DNA of 64,000 nucleotides from an uncultured Campylobacterales bacterium (GCA_964560425.1 CAZLLE010000017.1:9084-73083); one strand, 5' to 3'. Counted from the stretch's first letter, positions 6,838 to 45,579 are shown. Notes: generated by a model from the letters alone, not told the origin. A program made the numbers and translations.

Positions 6838-7761
6838 GTGAGACACTTTTTGACACTACAAGATTTTACAAAAGATGAAATCTTAGAAATGGTAAATTTG
6901 GCATTTGAGATAAAACATGATCTTAAAAAGGGAGAAAAAAAAGATTATTTAAGAGGACAAACTCTTGGAATGATTTTTGAAAAAAGTTCAACAAGAACTA
7001 GAGTAAGTTTTGAGGTAGGTATGTTCCAACTTGGAGGACATGCACTATTTTTATCCTCAAAAGATATTCAACTCGGTCGCGGAGAACCTATGAAAGATAC
7101 GGCAAGAGTTATATCAAGAATGGTTGATATGATTATGATTCGTACATTTTCACACAAAGGGCTTGAGGAGTTTGCCTCTTTTTCAAAAGTACCAGTGATA
7201 AATGGACTCACAGACTCGTATCATCCAGTACAACTTATGGCAGATTACATGACAATAATAGAACATAAAAAAGATAAAAATCTAGTTGTTGCTTATATAG
7301 GTGATGGGAATAATATGGTTCACTCATGGCTAATGTTGGCTGCAAAACTTGGATTTGAATTAAGAATCGCTACACCAAAAGGGTGTGAAGTAGATAATAA
7401 AATTTTACAAGAGGCTTTGGAGATTGCCAAAACTTCTAATGCAAAAATAGTTGTCTCAAATAATCCCAAAGAGGCAGTAAAAGATGCAACAGTAGTAACC
7501 ACCGATACATGGATATCAATGGGGCAAGAGGATGAAAAAGAGCAGAAAGTAAAAGAGTTCAAAGGTTTTATTGTAGATAATGCACTCATGAGTTTAGCAC
7601 AAGAAAAAGCCATGTTTTTACATTGCCTTCCTGCTTATAGAGGATATGAAGTAAGTGAAGAAGTTTTTGAATCCCATGCAAATGAGATTTTTGAAGAGGC
7701 AGAAAACAGACTCCATGCACAAAAAGGTGTCATGGTATGGCTAGATAAAAATAGAAAATAA
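6838..7761 (+). CDS. argF: ornithine carbamoyltransferase
   Basis: STRTRVSFE carbamoyl-phosphate motif, HPVQ, and HCLPA motifs. GTG start. Confidence 0.9.
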
Positions 7762-7776
7762 GGAAATATAAGTTTA

Positions 7777-9144
7777 ATGATCGACTTCAACAAGTTCACA
7801 AAATACTCAAAACCAGGACCTAGATATACAAGCTATCCAACAGCACTAGAATTTAGTGACTCATTTACAAAAGAGGCTTATCTACAAGAGCTAAAGGATC
7901 AAAAAAGTGATACCCCTCTATCTCTATATTTTCATCTTCCTTTTTGTAGATCTGCTTGTTATTTTTGTGGCTGTAATGTTGTTTTTACATCAAAAGAGGA
8001 CAAAAAAGAGAGATATATTAGTTATATAGAGAAAGAACTCAAAATTTTAGCTTCATATCTTGATACCTCTAGAGAGGTTATTCAGCTCCACTTTGGTGGC
8101 GGAACACCAACTTTTTTTGATGAAGTACAACTAAAAAGAGTAATTGATCTTATCAAATCTACTTTTCCAAATTTTAGAGATGATTCAGAGATAAGTTGTG
8201 AAATTGATCCAAGATTTTTCACCCCAAAACATATGAATGTCCTCAAAGAGGGTGGATTTAACCGTATAAGTTTTGGTGTGCAAGATTTTGATCCCAAAGT
8301 TCAAGAAGCAGTACACAGAATCCAACCTTTTGAAGTTACAAAAAAGGCTATTGATTTAGCAAGAAGTGGAGGAATAAAGTCTGTAAATGTTGATCTTATT
8401 TATGGTCTACCATTTCAAACATTTGAAACATTCAAAAAAACTCTAGCAGAAGCAAGAGAGTTGGACGCTGATCGTTTTGCAGTTTTTAATTACGCTCATG
8501 TTCCATGGCTCAAAAAAACTATGAGAAAAATAGATGAAACTACCCTTCCACACCCATCAGTAAAACTAAAAATATTAGAGTACACAATAGAATTTTTTGA
8601 GACTCATGGATATAAAATGGTAGGAATGGATCACTTTGCAAAACCAGAAGATGAGCTATTTTTGGCAATTGAAAAAGGTGAACTACATAGAAACTTCCAA
8701 GGATACACCACAAAAGGTGGAGCCGATCTAATTGGCGTAGGACTTACAAGTATTGGTGAAGGTGCTAGTTATTATGCACAAAATACCAAAGATATGAAAT
8801 CTTATGAAGCAGCAATTGATGCGGGTGAATTACCATTTGAGAAAGGTATCAAACTCAATCAAGATGATATTATCAGAAACTATGTAATTATGGAACTTAT
8901 GAGTAACTTCAAACTCAATATTTCAAGAGTTGAAGAGAAATTTGATATCAACTTCAAAGAGTATTTCAAAGATGCCCTAGATTCACTACAACCATTTGTA
9001 GATGAAGAGTTACTCACAATCACCGACACAGAGATCAAAGCTAGTCAAACAGGAACAATGCTTATAAGAAATATAGCTATGGCATTTGATGCTTACATGA
9101 AAAAATTATCTGATAATAGTAAAAGATTTAGTAAGACTATATAG
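7777..9144 (+). CDS. hemN: oxygen-independent coproporphyrinogen III oxidase (radical SAM)
   Basis: YFHLPFCRSACYFCGC radical-SAM cluster motif, GGGTPT, and a HemN-like length. Confidence 0.9.
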   Translation: MIDFNKFTKYSKPGPRYTSYPTALEFSDSFTKEAYLQELKDQKSDTPLSLYFHLPFCRSACYFCGCNVVFTSKEDKKERYISYIEKELKILASYLDTSREVIQLHFGGGTPTFFDEVQLKRVIDLIKSTFPNFRDDSEISCEIDPRFFTPKHMNVLKEGGFNRISFGVQDFDPKVQEAVHRIQPFEVTKKAIDLARSGGIKSVNVDLIYGLPFQTFETFKKTLAEARELDADRFAVFNYAHVPWLKKTMRKIDETTLPHPSVKLKILEYTIEFFETHGYKMVGMDHFAKPEDELFLAIEKGELHRNFQGYTTKGGADLIGVGLTSIGEGASYYAQNTKDMKSYEAAIDAGELPFEKGIKLNQDDIIRNYVIMELMSNFKLNISRVEEKFDINFKEYFKDALDSLQPFVDEELLTITDTEIKASQTGTMLIRNIAMAFDAYMKKLSDNSKRFSKTI

Positions 9145-14306: not shown

Positions 14307-14382
14307 GGCTGGATAGCTCAGTCGGTAGAGCAGGTGACTGAAAATCACCGTGTCGGCGGTTCGATTCCGTCTCCAGCCACCA
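14307..14382 (+). tRNA. tRNA-Phe (anticodon GAA)
   Basis: Folded by hand. Acceptor GGCTGGA/TCCAGCC, anticodon stem GGTGA/TCACC with loop CTGAAAA, T-loop GGTTCGATTCC, encoded CCA. Confidence 0.95.
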
Positions 14383-14488: not shown

Positions 14489-15079
14489 ATGAAATATATT
14501 TGGCTATCTATCTATTTTATTGTTTTAGTATGGTCAGGCATACACCCAAAAGATTATTTTACTTGGTTTCTTGAAGTGGCTCCTGCACTTATTGGGCTTG
14601 GGGTCATGATATATAGTTATAGATCTTTTCCTCTTACTCCTCTTGTATATACTCTAATATTAATTCACTCTATTATATTAATGGTTGGTGGACACTATAC
14701 CTATGCAGAAGTTCCTCTTTTTGACTGGATCAAAGATAGTTTTGATTTGGCTAGAAATAATTATGATAAAGTTGGACATTTTGCTCAAGGATTTATTCCT
14801 GCTATGATTACTAGAGAGATTGTTATACGAAAATCGGTTATTAATGGTTCAGGTTGGAGAAACTTTTTTATAGTCTGCTTTGTATTAGCCTTTAGTGCAT
14901 TTTATGAGCTTATTGAGTGGTGGGTAGCAATCTTTTCAGATCAAGGAGCAGAGGCATTTTTGGGTACTCAAGGCTATATTTGGGATACACAATCAGATAT
15001 GTTTTGGGCATTATGTGGAGCAATAATAGCTCTTTTATTACTTAGTAAATATCACGATAGAGAGCTTGAAAAACTATAA
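14489..15079 (+). CDS. DUF2238 (YjdF-like) inner-membrane protein
   Basis: Multi-TM protein with conserved blocks GGHYTYAEVP, RNNYDKVGHF, YELIEWW and FLGTQGYIWDTQSDM. It is a paralog of the gene at 35370-35963. Confidence 0.7.
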   Translation: MKYIWLSIYFIVLVWSGIHPKDYFTWFLEVAPALIGLGVMIYSYRSFPLTPLVYTLILIHSIILMVGGHYTYAEVPLFDWIKDSFDLARNNYDKVGHFAQGFIPAMITREIVIRKSVINGSGWRNFFIVCFVLAFSAFYELIEWWVAIFSDQGAEAFLGTQGYIWDTQSDMFWALCGAIIALLLLSKYHDRELEKL

Positions 15080-20239: not shown

Positions 20240-20248
20240 TATTTTTAC

Positions 20249-20995
20249 TCAAAGTCCAAATTCTTCAACTCTATATTTCAAAACTGCTCCATCATCATCC
20301 GCAAAATAGACAAAGCCTCTATTATCAAATGCTATTCCTTCTTGAGCAAATTGTGGTAATTTTTTGCTCCATATAACTTTATCTTTTTTGAGACTATATT
20401 TAATCAAAAGATCTTGTTTGTCACTTACCATATATAGATTACCTTTGTAGATATCCAATCCAGCCACATCAATAAAACCATGATCTATTATATTATCAAT
20501 AGCCAACTTTTTCTTATCTCTACTTTTTAATTTAGCTATTACTGATGAGTGATTTTTTGGCCATTTTTTTGAGGATTGATTAGATAGATAGATATCAGAA
20601 CCATCAATTGTAATACCCTCGATACCATGTTTACCTGATTTAAATATTTTGATACCTCTATATTTTTTTTTCACTCCGATGATTCGTTTGATTTTGAGTG
20701 TTTTTTGATTTAATACAACTATAGAGTTACTCTCTTCATCAACTAAAAATAGCTCTTTGCCATCTTTTGAGCAGGCTACACCTTCAAGATCATATTGACC
20801 TACTCTCTTTTTTTGTAAAATTTTACCATCACGATCAATTTGATAAATAGTTCCTTCATCATTCGCAACAAAAAGAGAATCACTCTTTGGGGCATAACAT
20901 ATTCCTGAAGCTTCAGGGATTTTAGCAATCACAACATCAGCAAAACAGCCACTAAACAGGCTAATAATAGCACTCATACCAAAAATTAATTTCAT
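20249..20995 (-). CDS. secreted beta-propeller-like protein (SdiA-regulated/YjiK-like, tentative)
   Basis: Signal peptide. Recurring xEG(I/V)A(F/C) blocks (ASGICYAP, LEGVACS, IEGITIDG, QEGIAFD) spaced about 50 aa apart. Confidence 0.5.
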   Translation of the reverse strand: MKLIFGMSAIISLFSGCFADVVIAKIPEASGICYAPKSDSLFVANDEGTIYQIDRDGKILQKKRVGQYDLEGVACSKDGKELFLVDEESNSIVVLNQKTLKIKRIIGVKKKYRGIKIFKSGKHGIEGITIDGSDIYLSNQSSKKWPKNHSSVIAKLKSRDKKKLAIDNIIDHGFIDVAGLDIYKGNLYMVSDKQDLLIKYSLKKDKVIWSKKLPQFAQEGIAFDNRGFVYFADDDGAVLKYRVEEFGL

Positions 20996-22278
20996 CTTAA
21001 AAGTTCCTCTCTATTTTTTGACATTTCATAAACCTTTTCCCAAGTAAATGAGAAAAATTGAAATCCCTCTACTGTTACATTATCATGATCTAATTCATGA
21101 ATAACCTCTTCAAGCATTGACTCAAGAGATATTTGAGTATTCAAAATAAAATCAAGACTTTTACTAACTCTAATCTTTTTCATAATATCCATAAGCTCCA
21201 ATACATATTTATCTGCCAAATTCTTTTGAGATTTTTGAAAATATCTACTTACAGCCAAAACAAAAGAGCTAATCAATGCTCCCAAAGTAATAAGAAGTGC
21301 CAAAAAATCGGCATTCTCCTCAAAATAAGATGGATTATCTCTCTCATAAAAACTCTTGGCACCTTCATGTATAGGTAGATTTGATGTATACTCTATATTT
21401 GGCAATGAAACAAATCCTGCAAGATTTGTATATTTCAATAGCTCCAACTGTCTCTCATAAAGTGTTTGAGTAATCTCTTTGATAAATTTTTTGTCCATAC
21501 TTATATTAGCCAATAAAACTCTTTTTACAGATAAAGTATTGATATCTTCTTGTGGAATTGGAGGTTCTCCATTATATGTTCCTTTGGGGATTATACTCTC
21601 CTTTAAAGATAAGTTTTTAAGAGCTAAAGCACCAGTTTGCTTTAGGGAAAGTAGTTTCAAATTACTATTTTTTATAATATTTTTAATATTAATATTCATA
21701 GGAGCTCTAAGAAAAAATATAGCATCTATATCTCTATCCTCAAATGCTTCTGCAATATCCTCCAAAAAAAATGGATAATTTTTAATATCAGCAGGATATA
21801 CACCATAGTGGTTGGCTACAAACCAAAAGGCATTCCATTGACCACTTTTTGTATCAGCTAAAGCCATTTTTTTACCTTTTAAATCAGCAAAAGAGCTAAT
21901 ATTTGCATCTTTTCGCACAATAAGATGATAAAAATCTGAATATAGATTACTAACTATAGAGGCAGAAGGACCTACTTTCATATCCACTTGAGCAATTGCC
22001 AAATCAATATGCCCCTCTTCAAGAAGGTTAATATTGGCACTTGATCCACCAGTATCCATAACTTCTAATCTCATATCAGTTGAATATCTCTGCATAGTTT
22101 TAGAAATTGCCTCTGCAAACATATATGATTCACTATTTTTGTGACCTGCTCCTATTTTGAAAGTTTTATAATTATCATCAGGATAAAAAAAATATTTAAA
22201 AATATGAAAAGATACAAAAATAATTGAAACCATTATCAACACTACAATAAGTTTTTGTAAAAGAGTAAAGTTTTTCAT
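20992..22278 (-). CDS. TAXI-family solute-binding-like protein with an N-terminal anchor, a C-terminal TM helix and a cytoplasmic tail
   Basis: TAXI-like block DTGGSSANINLLEEGHIDLAIAQVD. Hydrophobic helices at both ends of the binding domain, then a helical tail of about 90 aa. Confidence 0.65.
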   Translation of the reverse strand: MKNFTLLQKLIVVLIMVSIIFVSFHIFKYFFYPDDNYKTFKIGAGHKNSESYMFAEAISKTMQRYSTDMRLEVMDTGGSSANINLLEEGHIDLAIAQVDMKVGPSASIVSNLYSDFYHLIVRKDANISSFADLKGKKMALADTKSGQWNAFWFVANHYGVYPADIKNYPFFLEDIAEAFEDRDIDAIFFLRAPMNINIKNIIKNSNLKLLSLKQTGALALKNLSLKESIIPKGTYNGEPPIPQEDINTLSVKRVLLANISMDKKFIKEITQTLYERQLELLKYTNLAGFVSLPNIEYTSNLPIHEGAKSFYERDNPSYFEENADFLALLITLGALISSFVLAVSRYFQKSQKNLADKYVLELMDIMKKIRVSKSLDFILNTQISLESMLEEVIHELDHDNVTVEGFQFFSFTWEKVYEMSKNREELLR

Positions 22279-22324
22279 AGTAAGATTATATCAAATTATT
22301 TGAATAAATTTTGAAGGCTGTTGA

Positions 22325-23440
22325 ATGAATGAGATAGAAACTCCAATATATCTACTAGAAGAGGTCAAATTAGAAGAGAATCTAAAATTACTCAAAGAGG
22401 TACAAGATAGAAGTGGAGTCAAAATATTATTGGCACTCAAAGGTTTTGCACTATATAAAAGTTTTGATCTAGTAAAAAAATATCTAAAAGGGTGCTGTGC
22501 AAGTGGACTACACGAAGCAAAACTAGCACATGAAGAGATGGGTTTAGAACTACATACTTATGCCCCTGCTTTTAAAGATAGTGAATTTGAAGAGATTTTG
22601 GATATCAGTGATCATGTAGTATTCAACTCCTTTTCACAATGGCAAAAATACAAAACTAAAGCACTCAAAAAAACTTCATGTGGTCTTAGAATAAATCCAG
22701 AAGTTTCATCCTCACCAACAGACCTATACAATCCATGTGCTACATTTAGCCGACTTGGAATCACCAAAAAAGAGTTTCAAGAGGATCAGATAGAGGGTAT
22801 AGAAGGTTTACATTTTCATGCTCTTTGTGAACAAAATGCAGATGCACTTGAAGAGGTACTAAAATCATTTGAAAAAAATTTTGGACACCTCATACCAAAA
22901 ATGAGATGGATAAATTTTGGAGGAGGACACCACATCACCAAAAAGGGATATGACAAAGAAAAACTCATATCAATAATCACAAATTTCAAAGCAAAATATC
23001 CAAATATCCAACTATATTTAGAACTAGGCGAAGCCGTAGGCTGGGAGAGTGGAGTATTAATATCAAGCATATTAGATATAGTTCACAATGAAATAGATAT
23101 AGCAATACTAGATACATCTACAGAAGCACACATGCCCGATACCATTATAATGCCCTATCGTGTAGAAGTAAGAGATGCAACCAAAGCAAATAAAAAAAAA
23201 TATACCTATAGACTCACAGGAAATACATGTCTAGCAGGAGATATCATGGGTGATTACTCATTTGATAAGCCTCTAAAAATAGGAGACAAAATCATATTTG
23301 AAGATCAAATGCACTACACAATAGTCAAAAATACAACCTTCAACGGTATCCCCCTACCCTCAATAGGCATTTTAAGAAAAAATGGAGATATAGAGATAGT
23401 CAAAAAGTTTGGCTACAAAGATTATAAAAGACGAGTTTAA
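22325..23440 (+). CDS. nspC: carboxynorspermidine/carboxyspermidine decarboxylase
   Basis: Resembles the Campylobacter-type CANSDC. N-terminal ETPIYLLEE...LLALKGFA (PLP-lysine context), FGGGHH, and size of about 370 aa. Confidence 0.8.
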   Translation: MNEIETPIYLLEEVKLEENLKLLKEVQDRSGVKILLALKGFALYKSFDLVKKYLKGCCASGLHEAKLAHEEMGLELHTYAPAFKDSEFEEILDISDHVVFNSFSQWQKYKTKALKKTSCGLRINPEVSSSPTDLYNPCATFSRLGITKKEFQEDQIEGIEGLHFHALCEQNADALEEVLKSFEKNFGHLIPKMRWINFGGGHHITKKGYDKEKLISIITNFKAKYPNIQLYLELGEAVGWESGVLISSILDIVHNEIDIAILDTSTEAHMPDTIIMPYRVEVRDATKANKKKYTYRLTGNTCLAGDIMGDYSFDKPLKIGDKIIFEDQMHYTIVKNTTFNGIPLPSIGILRKNGDIEIVKKFGYKDYKRRV

Positions 23441-23871
23441 ATCAATAAAATTCGATCCAATAACTCTTGGGAACTTATATCTTTTTTAGAATATAGCTGT
23501 TCAAAATTATTTTGCAAAATAACTTTGAATGGCTCTTTATCTTTTATTTCAAGAATACCAATCAAATTATCAAGATATTCTCCATCTCCTTGTGCAATAT
23601 CAACTGCCAAAGAGTCCATATTATCACTAATAAAATTCTGAGCTTTTCTATAATGATGACGATGATTTTCAAAAGCCTCATCACCGCTAGTAGCATAAGT
23701 AGTACCAGCAGATGAAACTTCAATAGAAGCTCCAATACTCACACCAAAAATATAATCAGCAAAATCCTCCCCCTCAACATGAGAATCTTGATAAGAACTA
23801 TGCCCAATTTGATGAGCCAAAAGTGTCGAAGATATAGACAACAATAAAAAAACAGAAGCTTTTTTCCACAT
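23437..23871 (-). CDS. secreted hypothetical protein (DUF3015-like, tentative)
   Basis: Signal peptide. The C-terminal block NMDSLAVDIAQGDGEYLDNLIGIL resembles DUF3015. Confidence 0.5.
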   Translation of the reverse strand: MWKKASVFLLLSISSTLLAHQIGHSSYQDSHVEGEDFADYIFGVSIGASIEVSSAGTTYATSGDEAFENHRHHYRKAQNFISDNMDSLAVDIAQGDGEYLDNLIGILEIKDKEPFKVILQNNFEQLYSKKDISSQELLDRILLI

Positions 23872-24027
23872 AACAGACTCCTTTATTAAAAGTATATCGT
23901 TCTATCGTGAAAAATATGTGAAAAAAACAAAAAAAATTAACTATATTTCTATATAAAATTAGCATTATTTAAGCTTCCTTCTTGTAAAATCACCACTCAA
24001 ATGTCCTGACACACATTTAAAACATGT

Positions 24028-24102
24028 GGCCCGTTCGTCTAACGGTTAGGACTCCGGCCTCTCACGCCGGCAATAGGGGTTCGAATCCCCTACGGGTCAC
24101 CA
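24028..24102 (+). tRNA. tRNA-Glu (anticodon CTC)
   Basis: Folded by hand. Acceptor GGCCCGT/ACGGGTC, anticodon stem CCGGC/GCCGG with loop CTCTCAC, T-loop GGTTCGAATCC, encoded CCA. Confidence 0.93.
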
Positions 24103-24114
24103 ACTTTTTATATA
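24081..24114 (+). repeat. attL-like copy (authentic tRNA-Glu 3' end plus 12 nt of flank)
   Basis: tcgaatcccctacgggtcaccaactttttatata, repeated at 26685-26719. Confidence 0.7.
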
Positions 24115-24124
24115 ATTATGTAAT

Positions 24125-24374
24125 TACACCCCTATCGTTGAATCTCCATTTTTTATAATATAATTCCAAAAATGATTTAAATAAAGAAGATACAGTTATT
24201 TTTAGTAAATCTAAGTTATTAGAAAAACATTTTAACAAAAGTACAAGTAAAAAAGAGAGAAATTATATTATTCATTCAGCTTATTTGGATGGTTATTCTC
24301 AAATTAAGATTGCAAACTATATTGAATTGTCAAAATCACTTATCTCTAAGTAGAGATTCAACGGTAGGGGTGTA
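24125..24374 (+). mobile_element. decayed element: 22-bp terminal inverted repeats flanking a transposase C-terminal HTH remnant
   Basis: tacacccctatcgttgaatctc (24125-24146) matches the reverse complement of 24353-24374 at 21 of 22 positions. The internal frame reads ...KSTSKKERNYIIHSAYLDGYSQIKIANYIELSKSLISK*, resembling the DnaA-like HTH tail of RayT/IS200-like (COG1943) transposases. There is no start codon and no catalytic part. Confidence 0.45.
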
Positions 24375-24415
24375 GTTTCATATCGGGAAAACAAGACCTC
24401 CATCATCTTTATCTA

Positions 24416-24916
24416 TTAAAAATTATCTATTTCAAAGCGTCCATCTATATTAATATAGCTAATATCTTTTGAAACCAAACATGCAACACTATAATAGAGT
24501 ATTATTTGGTTACATTTGCCATAATGTCTTTTAGGCTCAATTGCTACATTGTTTGCACTTGAACTAATAATTATTTGACTAAAACCACATCCCCGACTTA
24601 CTAAAGGAAATAATAGAAGGTTATCCTTTTCAAAATCAACATTTATATTTTTTAAACTAGAAATCGTTTTTATATTTCGACTAATATTTAAATCTTCTAA
24701 AAATAAGTCATAAGATTCTTGACTAGAGAAAACTTTAGGATAGTCAATTAAGTGGCTATAACTATAAAGTGATACACCCTCCACCTTATCCTTAGTATTC
24801 TCCCCTTTATATATAAAAGTAGCGTTACTATCATCACCACCCAAATCCAAACTACTATTAGAATCCGATCCACACCCAATAAACAAAACCAAAACCAACA
24901 TAACTAAATATTTCAT
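24416..24916 (-). CDS. hypothetical lipoprotein (166 aa) in the islet
   Basis: Signal peptide with lipobox LFIGC. No family recognised. Confidence 0.55.
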   Translation of the reverse strand: MKYLVMLVLVLFIGCGSDSNSSLDLGGDDSNATFIYKGENTKDKVEGVSLYSYSHLIDYPKVFSSQESYDLFLEDLNISRNIKTISSLKNINVDFEKDNLLLFPLVSRGCGFSQIIISSSANNVAIEPKRHYGKCNQIILYYSVACLVSKDISYINIDGRFEIDNF

Positions 24917-25076
24917 AACAAACCTTTTTCTTTTATTGTAGTAAAAAATAGTGTGGGAAAAGTGAAGTTTGTTGGATTTTTCATTTCCATCTAGAAATAA
25001 AGATTTAGTAATCTAATCATATTTTTTCGTTACAATAAAACCAATTTATAAAATATATTTTAATTAGGATTTTACT

Positions 25077-25317
25077 ATGACAAGCACCCAATTACAACGC
25101 CAAATCTGGCAAATAGCCAATGATGTTTGTGGCTCAGTGAATGGTGATGATAGTGTCAATGATGTCATCAAAACAAAAGGGTATTTTATCTACCCTAGCC
25201 AACTCTTTGAAACATTATAGCTATTGAAGCGAGTGCAAATGGCTACCCATCAGAACCCGATATAAAAGGTTTATTTGCTGATTTTGATACTACTATTGTC
25301 GCGGAGATAGAGGCATG
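25077..25317 (+). pseudogene. hsdM: remnant of a type I restriction-modification methylase gene (hsdM N-terminal domain), frameshifted and truncated
   Basis: Frame 1 reads MTSTQLQRQIWQIANDV.G...GYFIYPSQLFETL*. After a frame shift it reads NIIAIEASANGYPSEPDIKGLFADFDTTIVAEIEA*. Both are typical HsdM_N blocks. The methyltransferase catalytic domain is absent, and the remnant stop overlaps the fic ATG. Confidence 0.6.
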
Positions 25318-25920
25318 ATACTAGAAAATAGGCTTGGTATCACAAACCAACTAGAACTCTCAAAAGTAGAAGAGAAGCTAAGCAAACAAAAAGCAAAAGA
25401 GCTTTTTGACTCTGGTGACATTGAAAAAGTGGAGATTGGAATATTTGAGGGGCTAAAGTTTATACACCATTACCTTTTTTCAGATATCTACCCATTTGCT
25501 GGAAAACCAAGAGATACAAACATAGCAAAAGGTGGTTTTAGATTTGCTCCTATGATGTACCTTGAAGCTTCACTAAAGCATATAGACACCATGCCTCAAA
25601 GCACCTTTGAGCAGATAATAGAAAAATATGTAGAGATGAATATAGCTCACCCTTTTCGAGAAGGAAACGGACGAGCCACAAGAATATGGCTTGATTTGAT
25701 ACTAACAAAAGAGCTTCAAAAAGTGATAGAATGGAATAAGGTAGATAAAGATGACTACCTCAGTGCCATGGAGCGAAGTGTTATCAAAGATATAGAGATA
25801 AAATATATACTCAAAAATGCACTCACAGATAATATAAATAATAGAGAACTCTTTATGAACAATATTGATGTAAGCTACTACTATGAGGGTTACACGAAGT
25901 TTAAGACCAAGGAGCTTTAG
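25315..25920 (+). CDS. fic: Fic-domain AMP transferase, class III (NmFic-like, C-terminal inhibitory helix)
   Basis: Fic motif HPFREGNGRATR. The whole length resembles Neisseria NmFic (GGFRFA, KYVEMNIAHPF, RIWLDLIL). The C-terminal SYYYEG fits the inhibitory (S/T)xxxE(G/N) motif. Confidence 0.88.
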   Translation: MILENRLGITNQLELSKVEEKLSKQKAKELFDSGDIEKVEIGIFEGLKFIHHYLFSDIYPFAGKPRDTNIAKGGFRFAPMMYLEASLKHIDTMPQSTFEQIIEKYVEMNIAHPFREGNGRATRIWLDLILTKELQKVIEWNKVDKDDYLSAMERSVIKDIEIKYILKNALTDNINNRELFMNNIDVSYYYEGYTKFKTKEL

Positions 25921-26018
25921 CGATGCAAAAGAGCTACTTTATGGCGTAGAGAGAGAAATTTTGAAAAATAGGAAAGATTAAGTATAATAATTCAAAAGAA
26001 GTATACAAAGGATATATT

Positions 26019-26312
26019 ATGACAAAAAGTGCAAGAAAACAGACATCTATCAAAGTTGATCCAGTAGCATGGGAGAGTGCAAAAGAGATTTTTGCAGGGT
26101 ATGGTATAAGTGTAAGCGATGCTATAAATATATTTTTACATAAAGTCCAAAAAGTTGGTGGACTTCCTTTTGAGATGAGAGATGAAGAGTATAAAGAGCC
26201 TACAAAAGAGGAGATATTAGAAGGACTAAAAGAGGCAGTAGAGGAGGTAAATCTTTACAATCAGGGTAAAATAGAACTTTTAGATGCTAGGGAACTTTTA
26301 GATGAGTTATAG
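26019..26312 (+). CDS. RelB/DinJ-family antitoxin
   Basis: N-terminal ribbon-helix-helix-like block TSIKVDPVAWESAKEIFAGYGISVSDAINIFLHKV typical of DinJ/RelB, with an acidic C-terminal tail. Overlaps the toxin gene by 11 nt. Confidence 0.75.
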   Translation: MTKSARKQTSIKVDPVAWESAKEIFAGYGISVSDAINIFLHKVQKVGGLPFEMRDEEYKEPTKEEILEGLKEAVEEVNLYNQGKIELLDARELLDEL

Positions 26313-26634
26313 TATTAAAACTACAAAAAGATTTAAAAAAGAGTTAAAACAACTTGCAAAAAAGTATAAAAAAATAAAAGTTGATTATAAAAATCTACTT
26401 GATAACTTAGAAAACAATCCAACTCTTGGCACATCTTTAGGTAACGAGTGCTATAAGATTAGAATACAAAATTCCTCTATACCCACAGGGAAAAGTGGTG
26501 GTTTTAGAATTATTACATTGGTAAAAATCAAAAAAGATAAGATTGTATTGCTCACAATTTATAGTAAAACTGAAAAAGAGAGTATCGGAAGGGATGAATT
26601 AGGTACGATACTTGAAGGTTTAGATCATGAGTAA
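26302..26634 (+). CDS. RelE/ParE-superfamily toxin
   Basis: 110 aa. SIKTTKRFKKELKQLAKKY...CYKIRI...GKSGGFRIITLV...IVLLTIYSKTEKESI is the classic RelE/ParE-like pattern. Confidence 0.75.
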   Translation: MSYSIKTTKRFKKELKQLAKKYKKIKVDYKNLLDNLENNPTLGTSLGNECYKIRIQNSSIPTGKSGGFRIITLVKIKKDKIVLLTIYSKTEKESIGRDELGTILEGLDHE

Positions 26635-26640
26635 TCAAAT

Positions 26641-26666
26641 CTACACCTCCTGCTATTGAATATCCA
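26641..26666 (+). repeat. third, diverged copy of the 24125/24353 repeat motif
   Basis: ctacacctcctgctattgaatatcca compared with (c)tacacccctaYcgttgaatctc. It lies just inside the right island boundary. Confidence 0.45.
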
Positions 26667-26684
26667 CTTTTAATAACATCCAAA

Positions 26685-26719
26685 TTGAATCCCCTTCGGG
26701 TCACCATCTTTTTAATATA
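26685..26719 (+). repeat. attR-like partial duplicate of the tRNA-Glu 3' end
   Basis: ttgaatccccttcgggtcaccatctttttaatata compared with the tRNA 3' end at 24081-24114. Confidence 0.7.
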
Positions 26720-26817
26720 GACAAATAAACAAAAGATTCAAAGCCAAAATAATCTATTTAAACAAATATGTGATAAACTTTTTAAGTTATTAATAGATTT
26801 TAAAATTAGGGGAAAAA

Positions 26818-27651
26818 ATGAAGCTTAAACAGAAATTGGGGAATAATTTTAAGCAGAGTATTAAAGTCCAAGATAGGCTTTTTAAAACCAAAAGTGATTA
26901 TCAAAAGATAGAGATATATGAGAGTGATGAGTTAGGTAATATTTTAGTAATTGATGATGAAATTGCCATGACTCAAAAAGATGCACCATCTTATTATGAG
27001 ATGATTGCACAAGTGCCAGTTTGTACACATAGAGAGCCACAAAAGGTATTGATACTTGGTGGTGGTTTGGGTGGAAGTGCTAGGGAAATTTTGCGACATG
27101 AAGATATCTCTATTGATGTTGTTGAGTTAGATGAAGAGATCGTAAATGTTTCAAAAAAATATTTTGGTACTCTATCTAGCTCTTTAGAAAATGATAATGT
27201 CAAACTTACTATCTCAAATGGTATGGACTTTATATCTGATAGTGAAGATAAGAGTTATGATATTATCATCGTTGATGTTTTTTCTCATAATTCACAATAC
27301 AAGGAACTTTTTGAGCCTACTTTTTATGCTCAAGCAAATAGAGTTCTCAAAGATAATGGTCTATTAGTTACTCAAGGTGGTAGCTATAGAGAAGATATAC
27401 AAAATCATAAAGAGTTACTAACTAATGCAGGTTCAAACTTTTGGATTGCAATGCCATATAATTACGAGTTTATGGGTAGAATCAATAACTTTATTTTAGC
27501 ATCCAAAAAATACCATCCAACAGCAGATATTATTCTACAAAGAGCTGATCTTATAGATGATCTTCACTATTATAATAGCGATATTCAAAGATCTTCATTT
27601 ATTATGCCTACATATATCAACAAAGCACTTCTAGGGATTGCAAAAAGATAG
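26818..27651 (+). CDS. speE: spermidine synthase-like polyamine aminopropyltransferase
   Basis: YQKIEIYES...G..LVIDD, VLILGGGLGGSAREILRH, and the IIVDV acidic block. Confidence 0.75.
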   Translation: MKLKQKLGNNFKQSIKVQDRLFKTKSDYQKIEIYESDELGNILVIDDEIAMTQKDAPSYYEMIAQVPVCTHREPQKVLILGGGLGGSAREILRHEDISIDVVELDEEIVNVSKKYFGTLSSSLENDNVKLTISNGMDFISDSEDKSYDIIIVDVFSHNSQYKELFEPTFYAQANRVLKDNGLLVTQGGSYREDIQNHKELLTNAGSNFWIAMPYNYEFMGRINNFILASKKYHPTADIILQRADLIDDLHYYNSDIQRSSFIMPTYINKALLGIAKR

Positions 27652-28254
27652 ATGTTTAAAAATGCTATCGTACTCACAGGAGGAATTGCCACAGGTAAAA
27701 GTAGTGTCTGTAATTTTTTGAGACTTTATGGTTTTGAAATTATAGATGCTGATAGTGTTGCTCATGAGAGTTTAGATGAAAATATTCAAGCCATAGGAGA
27801 GATTTTTGGCTTGGAATATATCAAAAATTCAAAAGTAGATCGTAAAAAATTGGGTAAGCTGATATTTTCAGATGAGAGTTCAAGAGAAAAATTGGAAAAT
27901 TTTATACATCCAATTATCAAAGCCAAAATAAAAAAGCGAAGTGAAGCTTTTGAAAATAAAAATATCCCCTATATCATAGATATACCACTATTTTTTGAGA
28001 AAAAAAATTATGATATCAAAGAGATAATATTAGTTTACGCACCAAAAGAGCAACAGATCAAAAGACTCATGAGTCGAGAAGGCTACAACAAAGAGGAATC
28101 AAATGAGAGAATAAACGCTCAAATGCCAATAGATGATAAAAAATCATTAGCATCTTTTGTAATAGACAACTCCAAAGATCTTAAACATATGCAAAAAGAG
28201 GTAGAGAGATTTCTATCTTATATCAAAATAAAATATCCTACTTTAAAGATTTAA
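27652..28254 (+). CDS. coaE: dephospho-CoA kinase
   Basis: P-loop LTGGIATGKSSV. Size and layout are typical. The start abuts the speE stop. Confidence 0.9.
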   Translation: MFKNAIVLTGGIATGKSSVCNFLRLYGFEIIDADSVAHESLDENIQAIGEIFGLEYIKNSKVDRKKLGKLIFSDESSREKLENFIHPIIKAKIKKRSEAFENKNIPYIIDIPLFFEKKNYDIKEIILVYAPKEQQIKRLMSREGYNKEESNERINAQMPIDDKKSLASFVIDNSKDLKHMQKEVERFLSYIKIKYPTLKI

Positions 28255-28998
28255 ATGAAAATACTATTTTCACCAAGTGAAGCTAAAACATCTGGAGGGA
28301 GAGATCAAAGTTTTGATCAAAATAGCTTTATATTTCCAGAACTTTACAACAAACGAAAAGAGATAGTTGATAAATACAACTCTATGATAAAAAGTGAAAA
28401 TGATGAAAAACTATCAAAACTATTTGGCATAAAAAATCCACAAAAATTTAAACAATATAAAAAAAATATCTACTCTCAACCAACAATGAAAACTATAGAG
28501 CGTTATAGCGGTATTGCATTTGAATATTTAGATTATCAAACATTGACAAATTCACAAAAAAGTTATATTGACCAAAATACAATGATCTTCTCAAATCTAT
28601 TTGGTCCCATCTTGGCAGGAGATCAATTACTACCCGAATACAAACTAAAACAGGGTGAAAAACTAAATGACTTTGTAATAGAAAAATTCTACAAAGAGCA
28701 TTTTAGTACAGCCATTGATAATTGGCTATCAGATGAACCTTTTCTCGATCTAAGAGCTGGTTTTTACAATAAATTTTACAAAACCACAACCAAAGAGTAC
28801 ACAACACTAAAATTTTTAAAAAACAAAAAAGTAGTAAGCCACTGGGCAAAAGCATATAGAGGATTAGTTTTGAGAGCTTTAGCTCAAAATAGTATTCAAA
28901 ATATGGATGAGTTTATGAATATGGAGATTTCAGGATTAGAGATTAGTGAAATTATCAAAATTAAAAATATGAGGCAAATTAACTTTAATATTTTGTAA
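28255..28998 (+). CDS. yaaA: YaaA-family (UPF0246) peroxide-stress protein
   Basis: N-terminal MKILFSPSEAK plus the YSGIAFEYLD and HWAKAYRG blocks. Confidence 0.8.
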   Translation: MKILFSPSEAKTSGGRDQSFDQNSFIFPELYNKRKEIVDKYNSMIKSENDEKLSKLFGIKNPQKFKQYKKNIYSQPTMKTIERYSGIAFEYLDYQTLTNSQKSYIDQNTMIFSNLFGPILAGDQLLPEYKLKQGEKLNDFVIEKFYKEHFSTAIDNWLSDEPFLDLRAGFYNKFYKTTTKEYTTLKFLKNKKVVSHWAKAYRGLVLRALAQNSIQNMDEFMNMEISGLEISEIIKIKNMRQINFNIL

Positions 28999-35369: not shown

Positions 35370-35963
35370 CTATACTTTTTCTTCACACTTATCAACTTTT
35401 AAATAAAAAAATAGATTTATCACTCCGCCAATAGTTGCAGCTAGTGTATCTTTATGAGCATCCCAAACATCTCCTTGAGTCCCTAAAAATGCCATGCCAA
35501 GATCGGGATGAAAAATTACAGCAGCTGCCCACTCAAGAAGTTCATATAAAGTTGCAATAGAGATAATTGCAGAGAGTGTAAAAATTACAGTCACCCTGCT
35601 CTTTTGTGTATAAAATGTAATTATCTCCAAAATTGGTCTAAAAAGAAGTAGCCCAAATAGGAAATGAACAACCCTATCATAATTATTTCTATCAAATGAG
35701 AAAAATTCCATAACAGGCTTAAAAAATGGAGTTTCAGCGTAAGTATAGTGAGCCCCTATAGTATGCAAGGTTGTAAATATAAAAAGCATTATTATAGTGA
35801 TAAAACTAAAACAATACTTCATATCCATCCAAATAATAATAGGAAAAAAGATAAAAATAAGAACATTTTCAAGTAACCAATCTTGACGATACTTAGGATT
35901 TATCGCCAAAAGTAACCAAATAACAATATAAATGGCATACATTATTTTATGAGATTTAGGCAT
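35370..35963 (-). CDS. DUF2238 (YjdF-like) inner-membrane protein, second paralog
   Basis: Shares the blocks GAHYTYAETP, RNNYDRVVHF, YELLEWA and FLGTQGDVWDAHKD with the gene at 14489-15079. Confidence 0.7.
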   Translation of the reverse strand: MPKSHKIMYAIYIVIWLLLAINPKYRQDWLLENVLIFIFFPIIIWMDMKYCFSFITIIMLFIFTTLHTIGAHYTYAETPFFKPVMEFFSFDRNNYDRVVHFLFGLLLFRPILEIITFYTQKSRVTVIFTLSAIISIATLYELLEWAAAVIFHPDLGMAFLGTQGDVWDAHKDTLAATIGGVINLFFYLKVDKCEEKV

Positions 35964-40850: not shown

Positions 40851-41792
40851 ATGATTTTTTTTTGGATTGTTATTACAATAATCGTAGCTATTTTTTCAGC
40901 TAGTATAGGTAAAATTGATTTAGACTTAATAAAAATATTTGACACTTCAACAATAGAATATCAAATTTTTACACAAATTCGCCTACCTCGTGTGATATTA
41001 GCATTTACAAGCGGGGGAATACTTGCCCTCTCTGGTCTTCTATTTCAAACCCTTTTTAGAAATCCTCTTACTACACCATTTACATTGGGAGTATCAAGTG
41101 GAGCTACTCTTGGAGCAGCTATAGCAATTATTTTTGGATTTTCATTTGTATCTTTTTTTGGTTTTATTGGAGCAATTAGCACCATTTTTGTTATCTACTT
41201 TTTTTCCAAAAAATTAAATTCAAATAGTGATCAAAGATTGATTTTGGTAGGAATTGCACTCTCATTTTTATACTCATCTATGTTACTAATAATCTATTAT
41301 TTGAGTGATTTTCAAGAGAGCTATTTGATCCTTAGATTTACAATGGGAAGCCTTTTGACTGTGGGATTTGGTGAAACTGTACCTATAATTTTGAGTGCTA
41401 CCATCGTAATATTTGTATCTCAAAAATATAAAAATGAACTCAAACTTTTATCAATTTCAAGTAATTTTGCATTTTTAGAGGGAGTAAATGTAGATAGGGT
41501 TTTAATTATACTTTTTGTAAGCATCTCTTTGGCTATTGGGATAGTTGTAAGTATCGTAGGACCTATTAGTTTTATTGGGCTTATCACTCCTCATATTATA
41601 AGAACTATTCTCAAAAAGAGTATAGATCAAATTATCATACCTACATTCATAGCAGGAGGGCTTTTTTTACTTATTTGTGACACTATCGCTAGAAATTTAC
41701 CAACTATCTCTGAAATACCTGTTGGTATTATTACATCATTTATTGGTGGAATTGTATTTGTTTATATTTTAATTAGTAGCAAAAAATATTAA
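40851..41792 (+). CDS. FecCD/BtuC-family ABC importer permease (orphan)
   Basis: About nine TM helices. QIRLPRVILAFTSGGILALSGLLFQTLFRNPL is the hallmark FecCD N-terminal block. No ATPase or binding protein is adjacent. Confidence 0.85.
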   Translation: MIFFWIVITIIVAIFSASIGKIDLDLIKIFDTSTIEYQIFTQIRLPRVILAFTSGGILALSGLLFQTLFRNPLTTPFTLGVSSGATLGAAIAIIFGFSFVSFFGFIGAISTIFVIYFFSKKLNSNSDQRLILVGIALSFLYSSMLLIIYYLSDFQESYLILRFTMGSLLTVGFGETVPIILSATIVIFVSQKYKNELKLLSISSNFAFLEGVNVDRVLIILFVSISLAIGIVVSIVGPISFIGLITPHIIRTILKKSIDQIIIPTFIAGGLFLLICDTIARNLPTISEIPVGIITSFIGGIVFVYILISSKKY

Positions 41793-41906
41793 TTTTTTTC
41801 TATTTTTATCCGATATTTTAGAAATAGTAGAAGAAAAGATTATAATTATTAATTTTTCATAAATATTAATGTATAATCAAAACAAATAATTCAAAAGGAA
41901 CATATC

Positions 41907-43832
41907 ATGAATAAAAAAGTACAATTTCTAGCTCTATCAATCACAACAATTGCCCTTCTAAGTGGCTGCGGTGAGGAACCAAAAGAGAATCCACTATACG
42001 AGCAATATCTCATAAACAAAAAAATTGCAGAACTTAACAAACCAAAGGTGCATCAAGAACCTAAAGTAGTAGTGGAACATGAAAAAGAGAAAGAAGTAAA
42101 AACTACACACACACCAGAACCAGAAAAAAAAGAAGTTGTACTAATTCATGATAAAAAAGAAGAACCGAAAGTTGTTCCTACTCCAGAAAAAGAAGAAGTT
42201 AAAAATAATACTCCTGTTCCTGAGAAAAAGGAGGTAAAAGTAGCTACTCCTGTTCCTGAGAAAAAGGAAGTAAAAGTAGTTACTCCTGTTCCTGAGAAAA
42301 AAGAGGTTACAAAAACTCAAGAAATTAAAGAGATCAAAAAAATTAAAGAAGTTCAACCAATCAAAGAGGTAAAAGAGGTTCAACCGATTAAAGAAATCAA
42401 AGAAGTAAAAGAGGTTCAAAAAGTTAGAGAGGTAAAAGAGGTAAAAAATATTACAACTCCAACAGAAAAAAAAGAGATTAAAGAGATTAAACAAGTTAAA
42501 GAGGTAAAACAAGAAACGACAAAAGTTAAAGAGATCAAACAAGTTAAAGAGGTACAACAAGAGACAACAAAAGTCAAAGAGATTCAAAAAGTAAAAGAAA
42601 TCAAAACTGAAATAGAAAAAAAAGAGATCAAAGAGGTTAAGAAAGTTAAAGAGGTCAGAGAAGTAAAACCAATCAAAGAGGTCAAACCTATAGCAATCAT
42701 CGAGAGTACCAAACCAAAAGTACATACTCATATGCATAGACACTCTTCAATACTAAAACACTCTCATCCACACTCTCATAATAAAGATGGATCTCATACG
42801 CACAAACCAAAAATTATAACAAAACCAGTAGTACACACTCATATGCATAGACATTCATCAATACTAGAACACTCACACCCTCATTCTCATGGGGCAAAAA
42901 GTTCACACACTCATGCAATTGAACCAATTACTCAAGCAAAGATAACACAATCACTCACTCAAACAAAAATTTTAAAAGAGGATTCAGCAAAAGATGTTTT
43001 AGACTCTATTAAATTTACACAAACAACAAAACAGATAGAGGTACCAAAAAAAGAGATATCAAATGCTACTCCATTAGATTTAGCAAAAACAAAAGCTAGT
43101 GCTAAAATCGCAAAATCTGTTGCATTAGTTGAAAATGCAAAAGCCGTTGCAACCGCACAAATCGCAACAGCTGTATCAGATGTTAAAATTGCACAAATCA
43201 AAGATAAAAAAGAGCCTATATCAGAGCAAAAGATAAAAAGAGAGCAAGAAAAATCAGATATACAAATCAAAAAAGCAATCCAAACAACTCAAAATGCAAA
43301 AGATAAATCTGCAAATAAAATTGCAAAAAGTATTATCAAACTAGAGAAAGCCATTCCAGAGGATAAAGATATAATCAGCAATGTATCAAGTCAACAAGAT
43401 ATTACAAAAATGCTAACAACTGTAAAAATAATCAAAGAGAATGCAGCAAAAGAGATTTTGAAATCTATTAAATTTATTGAATCTAATGAACCAGTAAATA
43501 AAGAGGAGAGCAAAGAGGTAAAATCTACTAGTGTAGAGATTGCAAAAGCAAAAGCAGCCGCAAAAATTGCAAAATCAATAGCATATGTGGAGAGTGCAAA
43601 AGCTGAAGCAACTGCACAAATAGCCCAAGCTGTAGCAGAAGTAAAATTAGCAGAAGTCAATAGTGAAGATAAATCTATCTCACCAGACAAACTAAAAATA
43701 GAACAAGAAAAATCTGCTGTAGCCATAACCAAAGCTGTAGCAACAACTCAAATTGCCAAAGCAAAAGCAGCCCAAACAATTGCAAAAAGTGTTGAAAAAG
43801 TAGAAAGAGCAAGAGTAGAGACAGAAAAATAA
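41907..43832 (+). CDS. highly repetitive lipoprotein (KE-rich repeats, duplicated His-rich block, duplicated Ala/Lys-rich helical module)
   Basis: Lipobox LLSGC. Contains 3x TPVPEKKEVKV(A/V), many (I/V)KEVKEV units, 2x VHTHMHRHSSIL(K/E)HSHPHSH...SHTH, and two related C-terminal modules of about 150 aa. Confidence 0.7.
   Translation: MNKKVQFLALSITTIALLSGCGEEPKENPLYEQYLINKKIAELNKPKVHQEPKVVVEHEKEKEVKTTHTPEPEKKEVVLIHDKKEEPKVVPTPEKEEVKNNTPVPEKKEVKVATPVPEKKEVKVVTPVPEKKEVTKTQEIKEIKKIKEVQPIKEVKEVQPIKEIKEVKEVQKVREVKEVKNITTPTEKKEIKEIKQVKEVKQETTKVKEIKQVKEVQQETTKVKEIQKVKEIKTEIEKKEIKEVKKVKEVREVKPIKEVKPIAIIESTKPKVHTHMHRHSSILKHSHPHSHNKDGSHTHKPKIITKPVVHTHMHRHSSILEHSHPHSHGAKSSHTHAIEPITQAKITQSLTQTKILKEDSAKDVLDSIKFTQTTKQIEVPKKEISNATPLDLAKTKASAKIAKSVALVENAKAVATAQIATAVSDVKIAQIKDKKEPISEQKIKREQEKSDIQIKKAIQTTQNAKDKSANKIAKSIIKLEKAIPEDKDIISNVSSQQDITKMLTTVKIIKENAAKEILKSIKFIESNEPVNKEESKEVKSTSVEIAKAKAAAKIAKSIAYVESAKAEATAQIAQAVAEVKLAEVNSEDKSISPDKLKIEQEKSAVAITKAVATTQIAKAKAAQTIAKSVEKVERARVETEK
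42210..42317 (+). repeat. three tandem 36-bp coding repeats
   Basis: actcctgttcctgagaaaaaggaggtaaaagtagct occurs three times (units start at 42210, 42246 and 42282) with a few substitutions. All are in frame. Confidence 0.9.
42720..42890 (+). repeat. duplicated His-rich coding block (two 60-bp cores, 111 bp apart)
   Basis: gtacatactcatatgcatagacactcttcaatactaaaacactctcatccacactctcat compared with the copy at 42831-42890. Confidence 0.9.
42968..43829 (+). repeat. internal duplication of a coding module of about 400-460 bp
   Basis: LKEDSAKDVLDSIKF...AKTKASAKIAKSVALVENAKAVATAQIATAVSDVKIAQ... parallels IKENAAKEILKSIKF...AKAKAAAKIAKSIAYVESAKAEATAQIAQAVAEVKLAE... Confidence 0.8.
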
Positions 43833-43895
43833 CTATTTAATAAATATCTGCAAGTATAAAAGCTTGTGGGTATTAATATATTTGATTTTGAATAG

Positions 43896-43986
43896 TGGCG
43901 GACAGTGAGAGATTCGAACTCTCGGTAGGATTACTCCTACGCATCCTTAGCAGGGATGTGGTTTCAGCCAGCTCACCCAACTGTCC
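43896..43986 (-). tRNA. tRNA-Ser (anticodon GCT), class II with a long variable arm
   Basis: Reverse complement folded by hand. Acceptor GGACAGT/ACTGTCC, anticodon stem CATCC/GGATG with loop CTGCTAA, variable stem GTAGGA/TCCTAC, T-loop TTCGAATC, CCA. Confidence 0.9.
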
Positions 43987-44020
43987 ATTTGAAAGAAGCA
44001 GAATTATACATAAACAATCT

Positions 44021-44704
44021 TTAAATTTTGCTTAAAATCCTACTTACTACCTCTTTTGGATTTTCTGCTTTATAGATTGGTCTACCTATTACAATAAAAT
44101 CTACCAACTCATCTTTGGCTTTATCCAAAGATGCAACTCTCTTTTGATCACCGCTATCCTCACCAAATGGTCTTATACCTGGAGTCAATGTAATAAATTT
44201 ATTTGAAGTACTCTCTTTGATAGATTTACTCTCAAAAGCAGAGCATACCACACCATCTATTCCACTTTGATAAGCGTTTTGGGCAAATTGTACTGCTTTT
44301 TTCTCTATGCTTTCATTATATATCTCTTGAAAGTTTTTTTCATCAAAACTTGTCAACGCTGTAACAGCCAAAACAAGTGGAGGATTTTTGGTATTTGATA
44401 ATCTATCCATGACTGTTTTCATTGCTACTTTACCACTAGAGGCATGAACATTAAACATATCTACACCTAATTTAGCTATCTCTTCTGCTGCGTCTGCCAT
44501 AGTATTTGGAATATCATAAAGTTTGAGATCCAAAAATATTTTGAAATTTGGATTAATCTCTTTTAGCTCTTTTATAAGTTGATAAGAGTCTCTAATATAA
44601 CTTCTAAAACCAACTTTGAGCCAAATATCAAACTCCTTTAGTTCATTGGCTAAGTCCAAATTCTCTTTGGCTGTTGGTAAATCCAAAGATACACAAAGTT
44701 TCAT
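44021..44704 (-). CDS. pyrF: orotidine 5'-phosphate decarboxylase
   Basis: MKLCVSLDL..., the DLKLYDIPNT catalytic block and a C-terminal GRPI motif. Confidence 0.9.
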   Translation of the reverse strand: MKLCVSLDLPTAKENLDLANELKEFDIWLKVGFRSYIRDSYQLIKELKEINPNFKIFLDLKLYDIPNTMADAAEEIAKLGVDMFNVHASSGKVAMKTVMDRLSNTKNPPLVLAVTALTSFDEKNFQEIYNESIEKKAVQFAQNAYQSGIDGVVCSAFESKSIKESTSNKFITLTPGIRPFGEDSGDQKRVASLDKAKDELVDFIVIGRPIYKAENPKEVVSRILSKI

Positions 44705-45102: not shown

Positions 45103-45105
45103 AGG

Positions 45106-45579
45106 TTAATTATCTTCCAAATTAGTATAAAGACTCATCATCTCAATAATAGTTGTCATTGCTTCAAAACCTTTATTTCCTGCTTTGCTTCCTGCTCTCT
45201 CAATAGCTTGTTCTATTGTATCAACTGTCAATACACCAAAAGATACAGCAGCATTATGTTTGAGACCTACAGAGGCAACACCCTTTGTAGCTTCAGCAGA
45301 TATATAATCAAAATGTGGCGTACTTCCACGAATCACAGCACCAACGCAACAAACTCCATCATATTTTCCAGAAGCTAACAGCTTTGAGAGTGCAAAAGGT
45401 ATCTCAAATGCACCAGGTACCAATACTAAATCAAGATTTGATTCATCTCCACCATGTCTTACAAATGCATCTTTTGCACCTTCGACTAATCTATCTGTAA
45501 TAATGTGATTAAATCTACCATTAATAATAGCTACCTTTTCATTTCCACTTAGTGCTAATTTTCCCTCTATGATATTCAT
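45106..45579 (-). CDS. ribH: 6,7-dimethyl-8-ribityllumazine synthase
   Basis: [22 protein letters not shown] and GNKG motifs. Confidence 0.93.

Follow-up and report, generated by a model that had tools for sequence, protein, structure and literature searches.

Islands integrated into tRNA genes, or Islander-type islands, include the pheV-tRNA islands of Escherichia coli (PMC11537424) and the tRNA-gene (tDNA) islands of Klebsiella (bioRxiv 10.1101/2020.11.02.365908). The att sites at tRNA genes usually extend from the T-loop to the CCA end and a short way into the flank (bioRxiv 10.1101/2020.11.02.365908). Cis-mobilizable elements (CIMEs) are att-flanked remnants of integrative and conjugative elements or integrative and mobilizable elements that are without recombination and transfer genes (PMC12084326). 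Here we describe a 2.6-kb islet at a tRNA-Glu(CTC) gene of an uncultured Campylobacterales bacterium, found within a stretch of 64,000 nt (GCA_964560425.1 CAZLLE010000017.1:9084-73083) that was analyzed as a whole and is called the window below; all coordinates without a contig name are positions in it. The islet spans 24103-26706, and we read it as an element inserted by a tyrosine integrase into the 3′ end of the tRNA gene and afterwards reduced by deletion to a stub, an account to which we give a probability of roughly 85%. It is an ordinary decayed, integrase-less, tRNA-integrated islet, of a kind common and well understood in bacterial genomes. Its ends are defined by the following features.

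24028-24102, plus strand: intact tRNA-Glu(CTC) gene, the integration target (ARAGORN; Rfam RF00005, 61.1 bits)
24081-24114, plus strand: attL, the last 22 nt of tRNA-Glu (T-loop to CCA) with 12 nt of flank, TCGAATCCCCTACGGGTCACCAACTTTTTATATA
26685-26719, plus strand: attR, a displaced 3′ fragment of tRNA-Glu with its flank, TTGAATCCCCTTCGGGTCACCATCTTTTTAATATA
26818-28998, plus strand: the core genes speE, coaE and yaaA, with which the chromosome resumes (Pfam Spermine_synth, CoaE and H2O2_YaaD)

The tRNA-Glu(CTC) gene is one of three tRNA genes in the window. A first-pass annotation, made from the sequence alone, had noted that its last 22 nt and 12 nt of flank recur at 26685-26719 with three substitutions and one indel, and the sequences read exactly as claimed: the copies differ at 24082 (C/T), 24091 (A/T) and 24103 (A/T), and attR carries one extra A. 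The flank of attL, ACTTTTTATATA, is of the element type, and that of attR, TCTTTTTAATATA, is of the host type. A repeat search delimits an ungapped core of 28 nt (24083-24110 and 26687-26714), identical at 26 of the 28 positions (93%), with the two copies 2604 bp apart, which is also the length of the insert between them. When the whole window was scanned for the 28-mer with up to three mismatches, just these two places were found; across 100 dinucleotide-preserving shuffles the expected number of matches was 0.00, and two matches occurred in none of the 100. The repeat is thus confined to two places in 64 kb and is not the dispersed tRNA-like element that the first-pass annotation had raised as a possible counter-explanation. 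The attR copy begins in the T-loop and has the same orientation as the 3′ segment of the tRNA. Alignment of the sequence upstream of 26685 showed no resemblance to the 5′ part of the tRNA, so what lies here is only the 3′ part of a tRNA and not a further tRNA gene. The housekeeping genes speE-coaE-yaaA follow immediately after it, as had been described, and their Pfam families match.

Relatives of the locus were sought with the SpeE protein, which gave matches at 90, 86, 84 and 82% identity; a genome-collection scan with the same query returned distant homologues only, at no more than 37% identity. The contig of the 90% relative (L008; NCBI GCA_053992415.1) is the closest relative found. Its gene order is NMT1-nspC-DUF3015-tRNA-Glu(CTC)-speE-coaE, the window sharing the nspC-DUF3015-tRNA-Glu and the speE-coaE order, and its tRNA-Glu is 100% identical to that of the window; yaaA does not follow coaE there. 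In this genome the tRNA is separated from speE by a gap of 126 nt and its 3′ end is present once. The empty site that had been predicted, with tRNA-Glu directly followed by speE, is therefore seen, and the relative without the cargo keeps a single copy of the repeat. By blastn, L008 6005-9881 corresponds to window 20246-24109 (90%) and L008 9855-11436 to window 26687-28253 (88%), so that the 27 nt at L008 9855-9881 align to both window copies. The homology to the window hence breaks exactly at the repeat, the left part running up to about 24109 and the right part starting from 26687. L009 and L011, which are more distant, are rearranged upstream of speE and uninformative on the site.

A three-way alignment shows to which side each mismatch belongs. 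The attB of L008 (TCTTTTTTAAT) has the attL bases at 24082 (C) and 24091 (A), and from the first base after CCA onwards (T, then TTTTT(T)AAT) it follows attR, not attL. This split into host and element bases may reflect an imperfect attP with strand exchange within CGGGTCACCA (24092-24102), or attR may have mutated after integration; both would fit the sequences. The empty site and the homology breakpoints in L008 support what the first-pass annotation had called the attL/attR footprint of site-specific integration.

On our reading, the attP of the element would have been a near-copy of the last 22 nt of the tRNA (T-loop to CCA) and about 12 nt beyond. Recombination would have rebuilt a functional tRNA at attL and left the second copy of its 3′ end at attR, 2.6 kb further downstream and just before speE. 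Later deletions would then have taken the integrase and most of the cargo, including a type I restriction-modification operon of which 80 hsdM codons and an embedded fic gene are left. On excision, the predicted junctions would be an attB of the intact tRNA joined to TCTTTTTAATATAGACAAAT and an attP of the form ...ATAACATCCAAATTGAATCCCCTWCGGGTCACCAACTTTTTATATAATTATG. The islet cannot move by itself.

To look for other insertions at the site, metagenomes were scanned with a 45-nt pattern of the tRNA-Glu(CTC) 3′ part (anticodon loop to CCA), and nine contigs identical to the pattern were obtained (L022-L030). One (L029) has the islet of the window itself, three break off precisely at CCA, and the remaining five carry at least four further, unrelated downstream sequences; homology between the contigs stops at the CCA end or within 4 nt of it. 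L023 and L024, for example, share 97.7% identity across the 386 nt that lead up to CCA and have unrelated sequence beyond it; L025, L027 and L028 agree at 99-100% as far as the end of the tRNA, past which L025 and L027 differ, L028 ending at CCA. Different downstream islands were thus observed behind near-identical upstream sequence, several of them within one sample (Ga0256834). The variation at this site points to polymorphism at the population level.

Some of these islands carry recombination genes. L023 has a frameshifted, shortened tyrosine integrase pseudogene that starts 56 nt after the tRNA (Pfam PF00589, 29.9 bits, cut-off 27.1; phrog_1, E=2.9e-13), followed by a UvrD-type helicase and an antitoxin-like pair. 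A truncated SoFic-like Fic gene and an Arm-DNA-binding integrase fragment are present in L026 (165-698 and 784-1023), and L024 and L027 encode an excisionase-like helix-turn-helix (HTH) protein. A 310-amino-acid open reading frame (ORF) of L027 gives weak Pfam recombinase signals (E=0.001-0.008) and nothing in PHROGs, NCBIfam or PDB; it is possibly a diverged recombinase. Several unrelated sequences follow the CCA end, one of them with an integrase pseudogene; tRNA-Glu(CTC) is therefore a hot spot for integrative elements in this lineage, where the integrase has been lost more than once. The sibling islands and the window islet have no cargo in common. Fuller versions of the island that still carry an integrase had been suggested as a target for searching; none with this cargo was found, and the different islands at the same tRNA came to light instead. 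Scans of viral contigs with the tRNA 3′ end hit nothing but whole tRNA-Glu(TTC) genes lying in clusters of tRNA genes, and those with the attL arm, with an arm of the inverted repeat described below and with RelE gave no match. A scan with Fic, whose gene is widespread, recovered prophage-like contigs, as was to be expected, and is uninformative for the islet; exact look-ups of RelB and RelE found the same contig only.

The islet is also present, at no less than 99.95% identity, in three other assemblies (L006, ENA ERZ27262694; L007, Logan SRR8542060; L029, JGI Ga0256914). Window 16819-37651 and L006, which are 99.95% identical over 20.8 kb, differ at 10 positions, of which 6 fall in the islet (binomial P=5e-4). 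Among the latter are a frameshift in hsdM and three changes in fic, two synonymous and one T131K. The excess in the islet fits relaxed constraint, with the numbers being small and the sequences metagenome consensus sequences. As far as these data go, the description of the islet as fixed is supported by its presence in the three further assemblies, and its description as decaying by the collapsed hsdM, a start-less HTH fragment and the share of differences that it holds.

The hot spot bears on a second reading, in which the islet is CIME-like, with usable att sites, and could be excised or co-transferred by cis-mobilization when a related element with the matching integrase lands in the same tRNA. 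Its att copies still match at 26 of 28 positions, other elements, some with recombinase genes, use this tRNA in relatives, with several in one metagenome sample, and integrase-less att-flanked remnants are a recognised class for which cis-mobilization is possible (PMC12084326). The sibling islands, however, have unrelated arm sequences right after CCA and share no cargo with the islet. Moreover, the four assemblies of this species include none with the islet excised or the site empty, and no third att-like copy, such as past tandem accretion might have left, was found inside the islet at up to seven mismatches. We therefore regard continued mobility of this kind as quite improbable and keep to an inserted element that has since decayed.

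Between its two ends the islet carries the following features.

24117-24382, no strand assigned: 266-bp element between inverted-repeat arms at 24117-24151 and 24348-24382, resembling an insertion sequence (IS) or miniature inverted-repeat transposable element (MITE) remnant
24159-24353, plus strand: start-less reading frame within that element, with a C-terminal HTH (sub-threshold matches)
24416-24916, minus strand: orphan lipoprotein gene, 166 amino acids (ORF), with the lipobox LFIGC at residues 11-15
25077-25318, plus strand: remnant of hsdM, the type I methyltransferase subunit (tblastn against the 513-residue HsdM of L017)
25315-25920, plus strand: intact fic gene, 201 amino acids, predicted class III NmFic-type adenosine monophosphate (AMP) transferase (Pfam PF02661)
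25961-25988, plus strand: promoter-like site, TTGAAA, a 16-nt spacer and TATAAT, matching 11 of 12 consensus positions, 30 nt upstream of relB
26019-26312, plus strand: relB-type antitoxin gene, 97 amino acids (Pfam PF04221, 33.7 bits, cut-off 22.4)
26302-26634, plus strand: relE/parE-type toxin gene, 110 amino acids (Pfam PF06296, 29.3 bits, and PF05016, 26.8 bits, both above cut-off)

The hsdM remnant keeps four blocks of the gene, corresponding to HsdM residues of about 1-26, 75-90, 113-137 and 507-513, with 90-97% DNA identity to L017. Residues 138-506, and with them the catalytic domain, are deleted, which leaves about 80 codons; the NCBIfam model TIGR00497 for hsdM matches the first 25 residues of the remnant only. 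In the near-identical assembly L006 (8259-8501) the blocks form a single in-frame ORF of 80 amino acids, and in the window copy a 1-nt deletion at 25209 breaks this frame. Relative to L017, the remnant shows at least four deletions, all in frame (12, net 126, 54 and 1107 nt). Neither an N6_Mtase catalytic domain nor hsdS or hsdR is present in the islet, which thus does not qualify as a type I restriction-modification system.

The stop codon of hsdM overlaps the start of fic (ATGA). The encoded protein carries the active-site motif HPFREGNGRATR, which matches HxFx(D/E)GNGRxxR, and a C-terminal inhibitory motif, SYYYEG (residues 187-192), which fits (S/T)xxxE(G/N) and aligns with the same motif of EfFic. 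Its matches in PDB are EfFic (5nv5, E=9e-95) and NmFic (2g03 and 3s6a, E=3e-67 to 4.5e-67), and it scores 301 bits against the NCBIfam equivalog NF046029 (NmFic; cut-off 230) and E=9e-101 against the PADLOC candidate defence family PDC-S04. On these matches it is a predicted auto-inhibited AMP transferase of the NmFic type. Across unrelated phyla, members of the family share 75-88% identity, and in L017 a fic homologue lies within an hsdM-fic-hsdS-hsdR operon; the literature on fic genes inside type I operons yielded nothing usable. Fic-family genes were observed in two unrelated islands at this tRNA, the window islet and L026.

Downstream of fic, both genes of the relBE pair are intact, and the toxin gene overlaps relB by 11 nt. 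RelB falls just under the cut-offs of the NCBIfam RelB/DinJ and RelB/ParD subfamilies; the toxin matches phrog_5869 (E=4e-16) and the RelE-like phrog_1213 and is weak against the NCBIfam RelE/StbE model (17.9 bits, cut-off 27.9). Promoter-like sites occur in the region at the number that a consensus scan expects by chance, so the site upstream of relB is a weak indication.

In the left part of the islet, the arms of the inverted repeat are 35 nt long and 86% identical, with a 21-nt core that holds one mismatch; within the window they occur at this element alone, with 0 expected by chance. The HTH frame gave just weak matches to HTH_38 and sigma-70 region 4, below cut-off, in searches of Pfam, NCBIfam and PHROGs, and a single homologue among 5.8 billion proteins, a 104-residue ORF (P0199) at 79% identity. 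This homologue was located at 7495-7809 of the JGI contig L031, from the same metagenome as L029, beside thrS-infC; it shares the right arm of the inverted repeat, and the left arm is absent there. No match to the element was found in plasmids (tblastn) or in viral contigs (inverted-repeat arm). A TA dinucleotide, a possible target-site duplication, flanks it on both sides if the ends are placed at 24119 and 24380, a weak sign in DNA of 31% GC. A transposase identity was considered for the remnant and set aside: it matches no transposase family and is present in a single copy in the window. The element looks like an IS/MITE remnant.

The lipoprotein has no match in Pfam, NCBIfam, PHROGs or PADLOC and, apart from itself, just two distant relatives (E of about 1e-5) among 1.84 billion representatives; its AlphaFold model is unusable (pLDDT 38.9). 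A match to the PrcB_C lipoprotein of L008 was rejected, as it is confined to the signal peptides. The accessory content listed in the first-pass annotation accordingly stands for the inverted repeats, the orphan lipoprotein, which has next to no relatives, the hsdM remnant, recognised by tblastn against the HsdM of L017, the class III Fic gene, with its family models and both motifs, and the RelB and RelE/ParE pair, above its Pfam cut-offs; the name transposase remnant is left unproven by family matches that are all sub-threshold.

The fic-relBE unit is also found at a second locus. In the related metagenome contigs L043 and L044 it adjoins purT; the shared sequence starts at window 25292 and takes in the final hsdM codons as well as the ATGA overlap. 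L043 611-1424 is 96.4% identical in DNA to window 25292-26105 over 814 nt, up to the contig end, and L044 5547-6229 is 87.7% identical. Only three short scraps of relBE are left in L044, where the start of fic is overlapped by an ORF of 28 codons that ends in the hsdM tail. The fic-relBE module has thus been at no fewer than two loci, and in each fic outlasts its neighbours. It might be proposed that, while several short deletions cut back the neighbours of fic, selection at the two loci keeps a translated leader (the hsdM tail with its ATGA overlap) for translationally coupled expression of fic after loss of the restriction-modification system; we consider this rather unlikely. If true, a translated mini-ORF kept upstream of fic would be of modest interest, and it is the sole thread of wider interest here. 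As to why these genes would have outlasted the rest, what is known of their families suggests that relBE may plausibly withstand further loss as an addiction module and that fic may be kept as a candidate defence gene.

The mixed nature of the cargo, with a left part (inverted-repeat element and lipoprotein) that has no detectable link to the right part (hsdM′-fic-relBE), together with the presence of fic-relBE at another locus in relatives, would also suit an old tandem duplication of tRNA-Glu in which the downstream copy decayed and unrelated DNA was inserted between the two. Such a history is nonetheless very improbable, for the relative with conserved order has a single tRNA and a gap of 126 nt, the second copy sets in abruptly within the T-loop and the 5′ two-thirds of the tRNA have left no trace, the flank bases split into host and element types as for attP x attB, and precisely this tRNA end also marks the breakpoint of several other islands. 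A chance match or dispersed tRNA-like sequence, for which no support was found, has a practically negligible probability, refuted as it is by the shuffles, by the restriction of the repeat to two copies in 64 kb and by the coincidence of these copies with the homology breakpoints to L008.

Several findings weigh against the insertion of an integrase-bearing element together with its present cargo. Only one empty-site genome, L008, was found, and its single copy might in principle stem from recombination between two repeats that removed an islet once present there. ORF and Pfam scans revealed no integrase ORF or fragment in the islet; tblastn with the integrases of the sibling islands gave no match anywhere in the window, and the annotated genes and remnants leave gaps of just 50-160 nt, in agreement with the first-pass statement that no integrase remains. 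A larger version of the cargo with an integrase was not found in the viral contigs or in the contigs looked up. Next to purT, the short contigs at hand show no tRNA fragment beside the fic-relBE unit, which may have entered the islet in some other way; because of this second locus, the arrival of the present cargo on a tRNA-targeting element is, like the insertion by an integrase, something that we infer. Finally, the GC content of the islet (0.310) is close to the mean of 2.6-kb windows (0.3115), and neither GC nor tetranucleotide usage sets the islet apart from the remainder of the window (z=-0.08 in each case; tetranucleotide rank 142 of 308), so that the comparison of GC and k-mer skew with the flanks, proposed as a check, gave no signal, atypical composition being a supportive and not an obligatory criterion of islands.

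Elsewhere in the window, the strongest tetranucleotide outlier lies at about 41000-45400. It includes an ORF of 641 amino acids without a Pfam match (41907-43832, plus strand), just upstream of tRNA-Ser(GCT) (43896-43986, minus strand). Two DUF2238 membrane-protein genes (Pfam) were observed at 14489-15079 and 35370-35963, one of them directly after tRNA-Phe (14307-14382).

The islet is a clean and fully bounded case of a tRNA-integrated element eroding to a toxin-bearing stub, and it matters little beyond annotation. For annotation, the region can be flagged as accessory, the hsdM fragment is not to be called a gene, fic and relBE are candidate defence or addiction genes, and tRNA-Glu(CTC) can be marked as a hot spot of integration in a little-known lineage of uncultured Campylobacterota. 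Among the matches, named SpeE homologues reach no more than 56% identity to that of the window (Campylobacteraceae bacterium 4484_4, 56%; Nitrosophilus, 52%; Nitratiruptor, 48%).

Among known systems, the Fic protein of the islet resembles EfFic (5nv5) and NmFic (2g03, 3s6a), the 201 residues aligning end to end with EfFic and the SxxxEG motif being kept; unlike in those two, the gene is here what survives of a type I restriction-modification operon and comes after a collapsed hsdM. With the hsdM-fic-hsdS-hsdR operon of L017 the islet shares the order of hsdM and fic, the ATGA overlap and the high identity of the hsdM blocks, whereas the methyltransferase domain, hsdS and hsdR are absent, relBE follows fic, and the whole is not a functional restriction-modification system. 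The relBE pair is arranged like type II toxin-antitoxin systems of the RelBE/ParDE kind, with the antitoxin first, an 11-nt overlap, both families above their Pfam cut-offs and a promoter-like site upstream; its toxin has a weak score against the RelE/StbE model.

As a whole, the locus can be set beside two classes of element. CIMEs were reportedly first worked out in Streptococcus thermophilus. Like them, the islet lies between attL and attR, has no integrase or transfer genes and occupies a site used by integrase-bearing elements; unlike them, it contains no remnants of conjugation or mobilization genes and has no tandem partner element. With Islander-type islands it shares an intact tRNA with repeat ends that extend from the T-loop to CCA, an accessory cargo, an empty site in a relative and the presence of several islands at one tRNA. 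It departs from the typical members of that class in having no integrase, in its far smaller size of 2.6 kb and in a composition that is not atypical, and its host belongs to uncultured Campylobacterota known only from metagenome assemblies.

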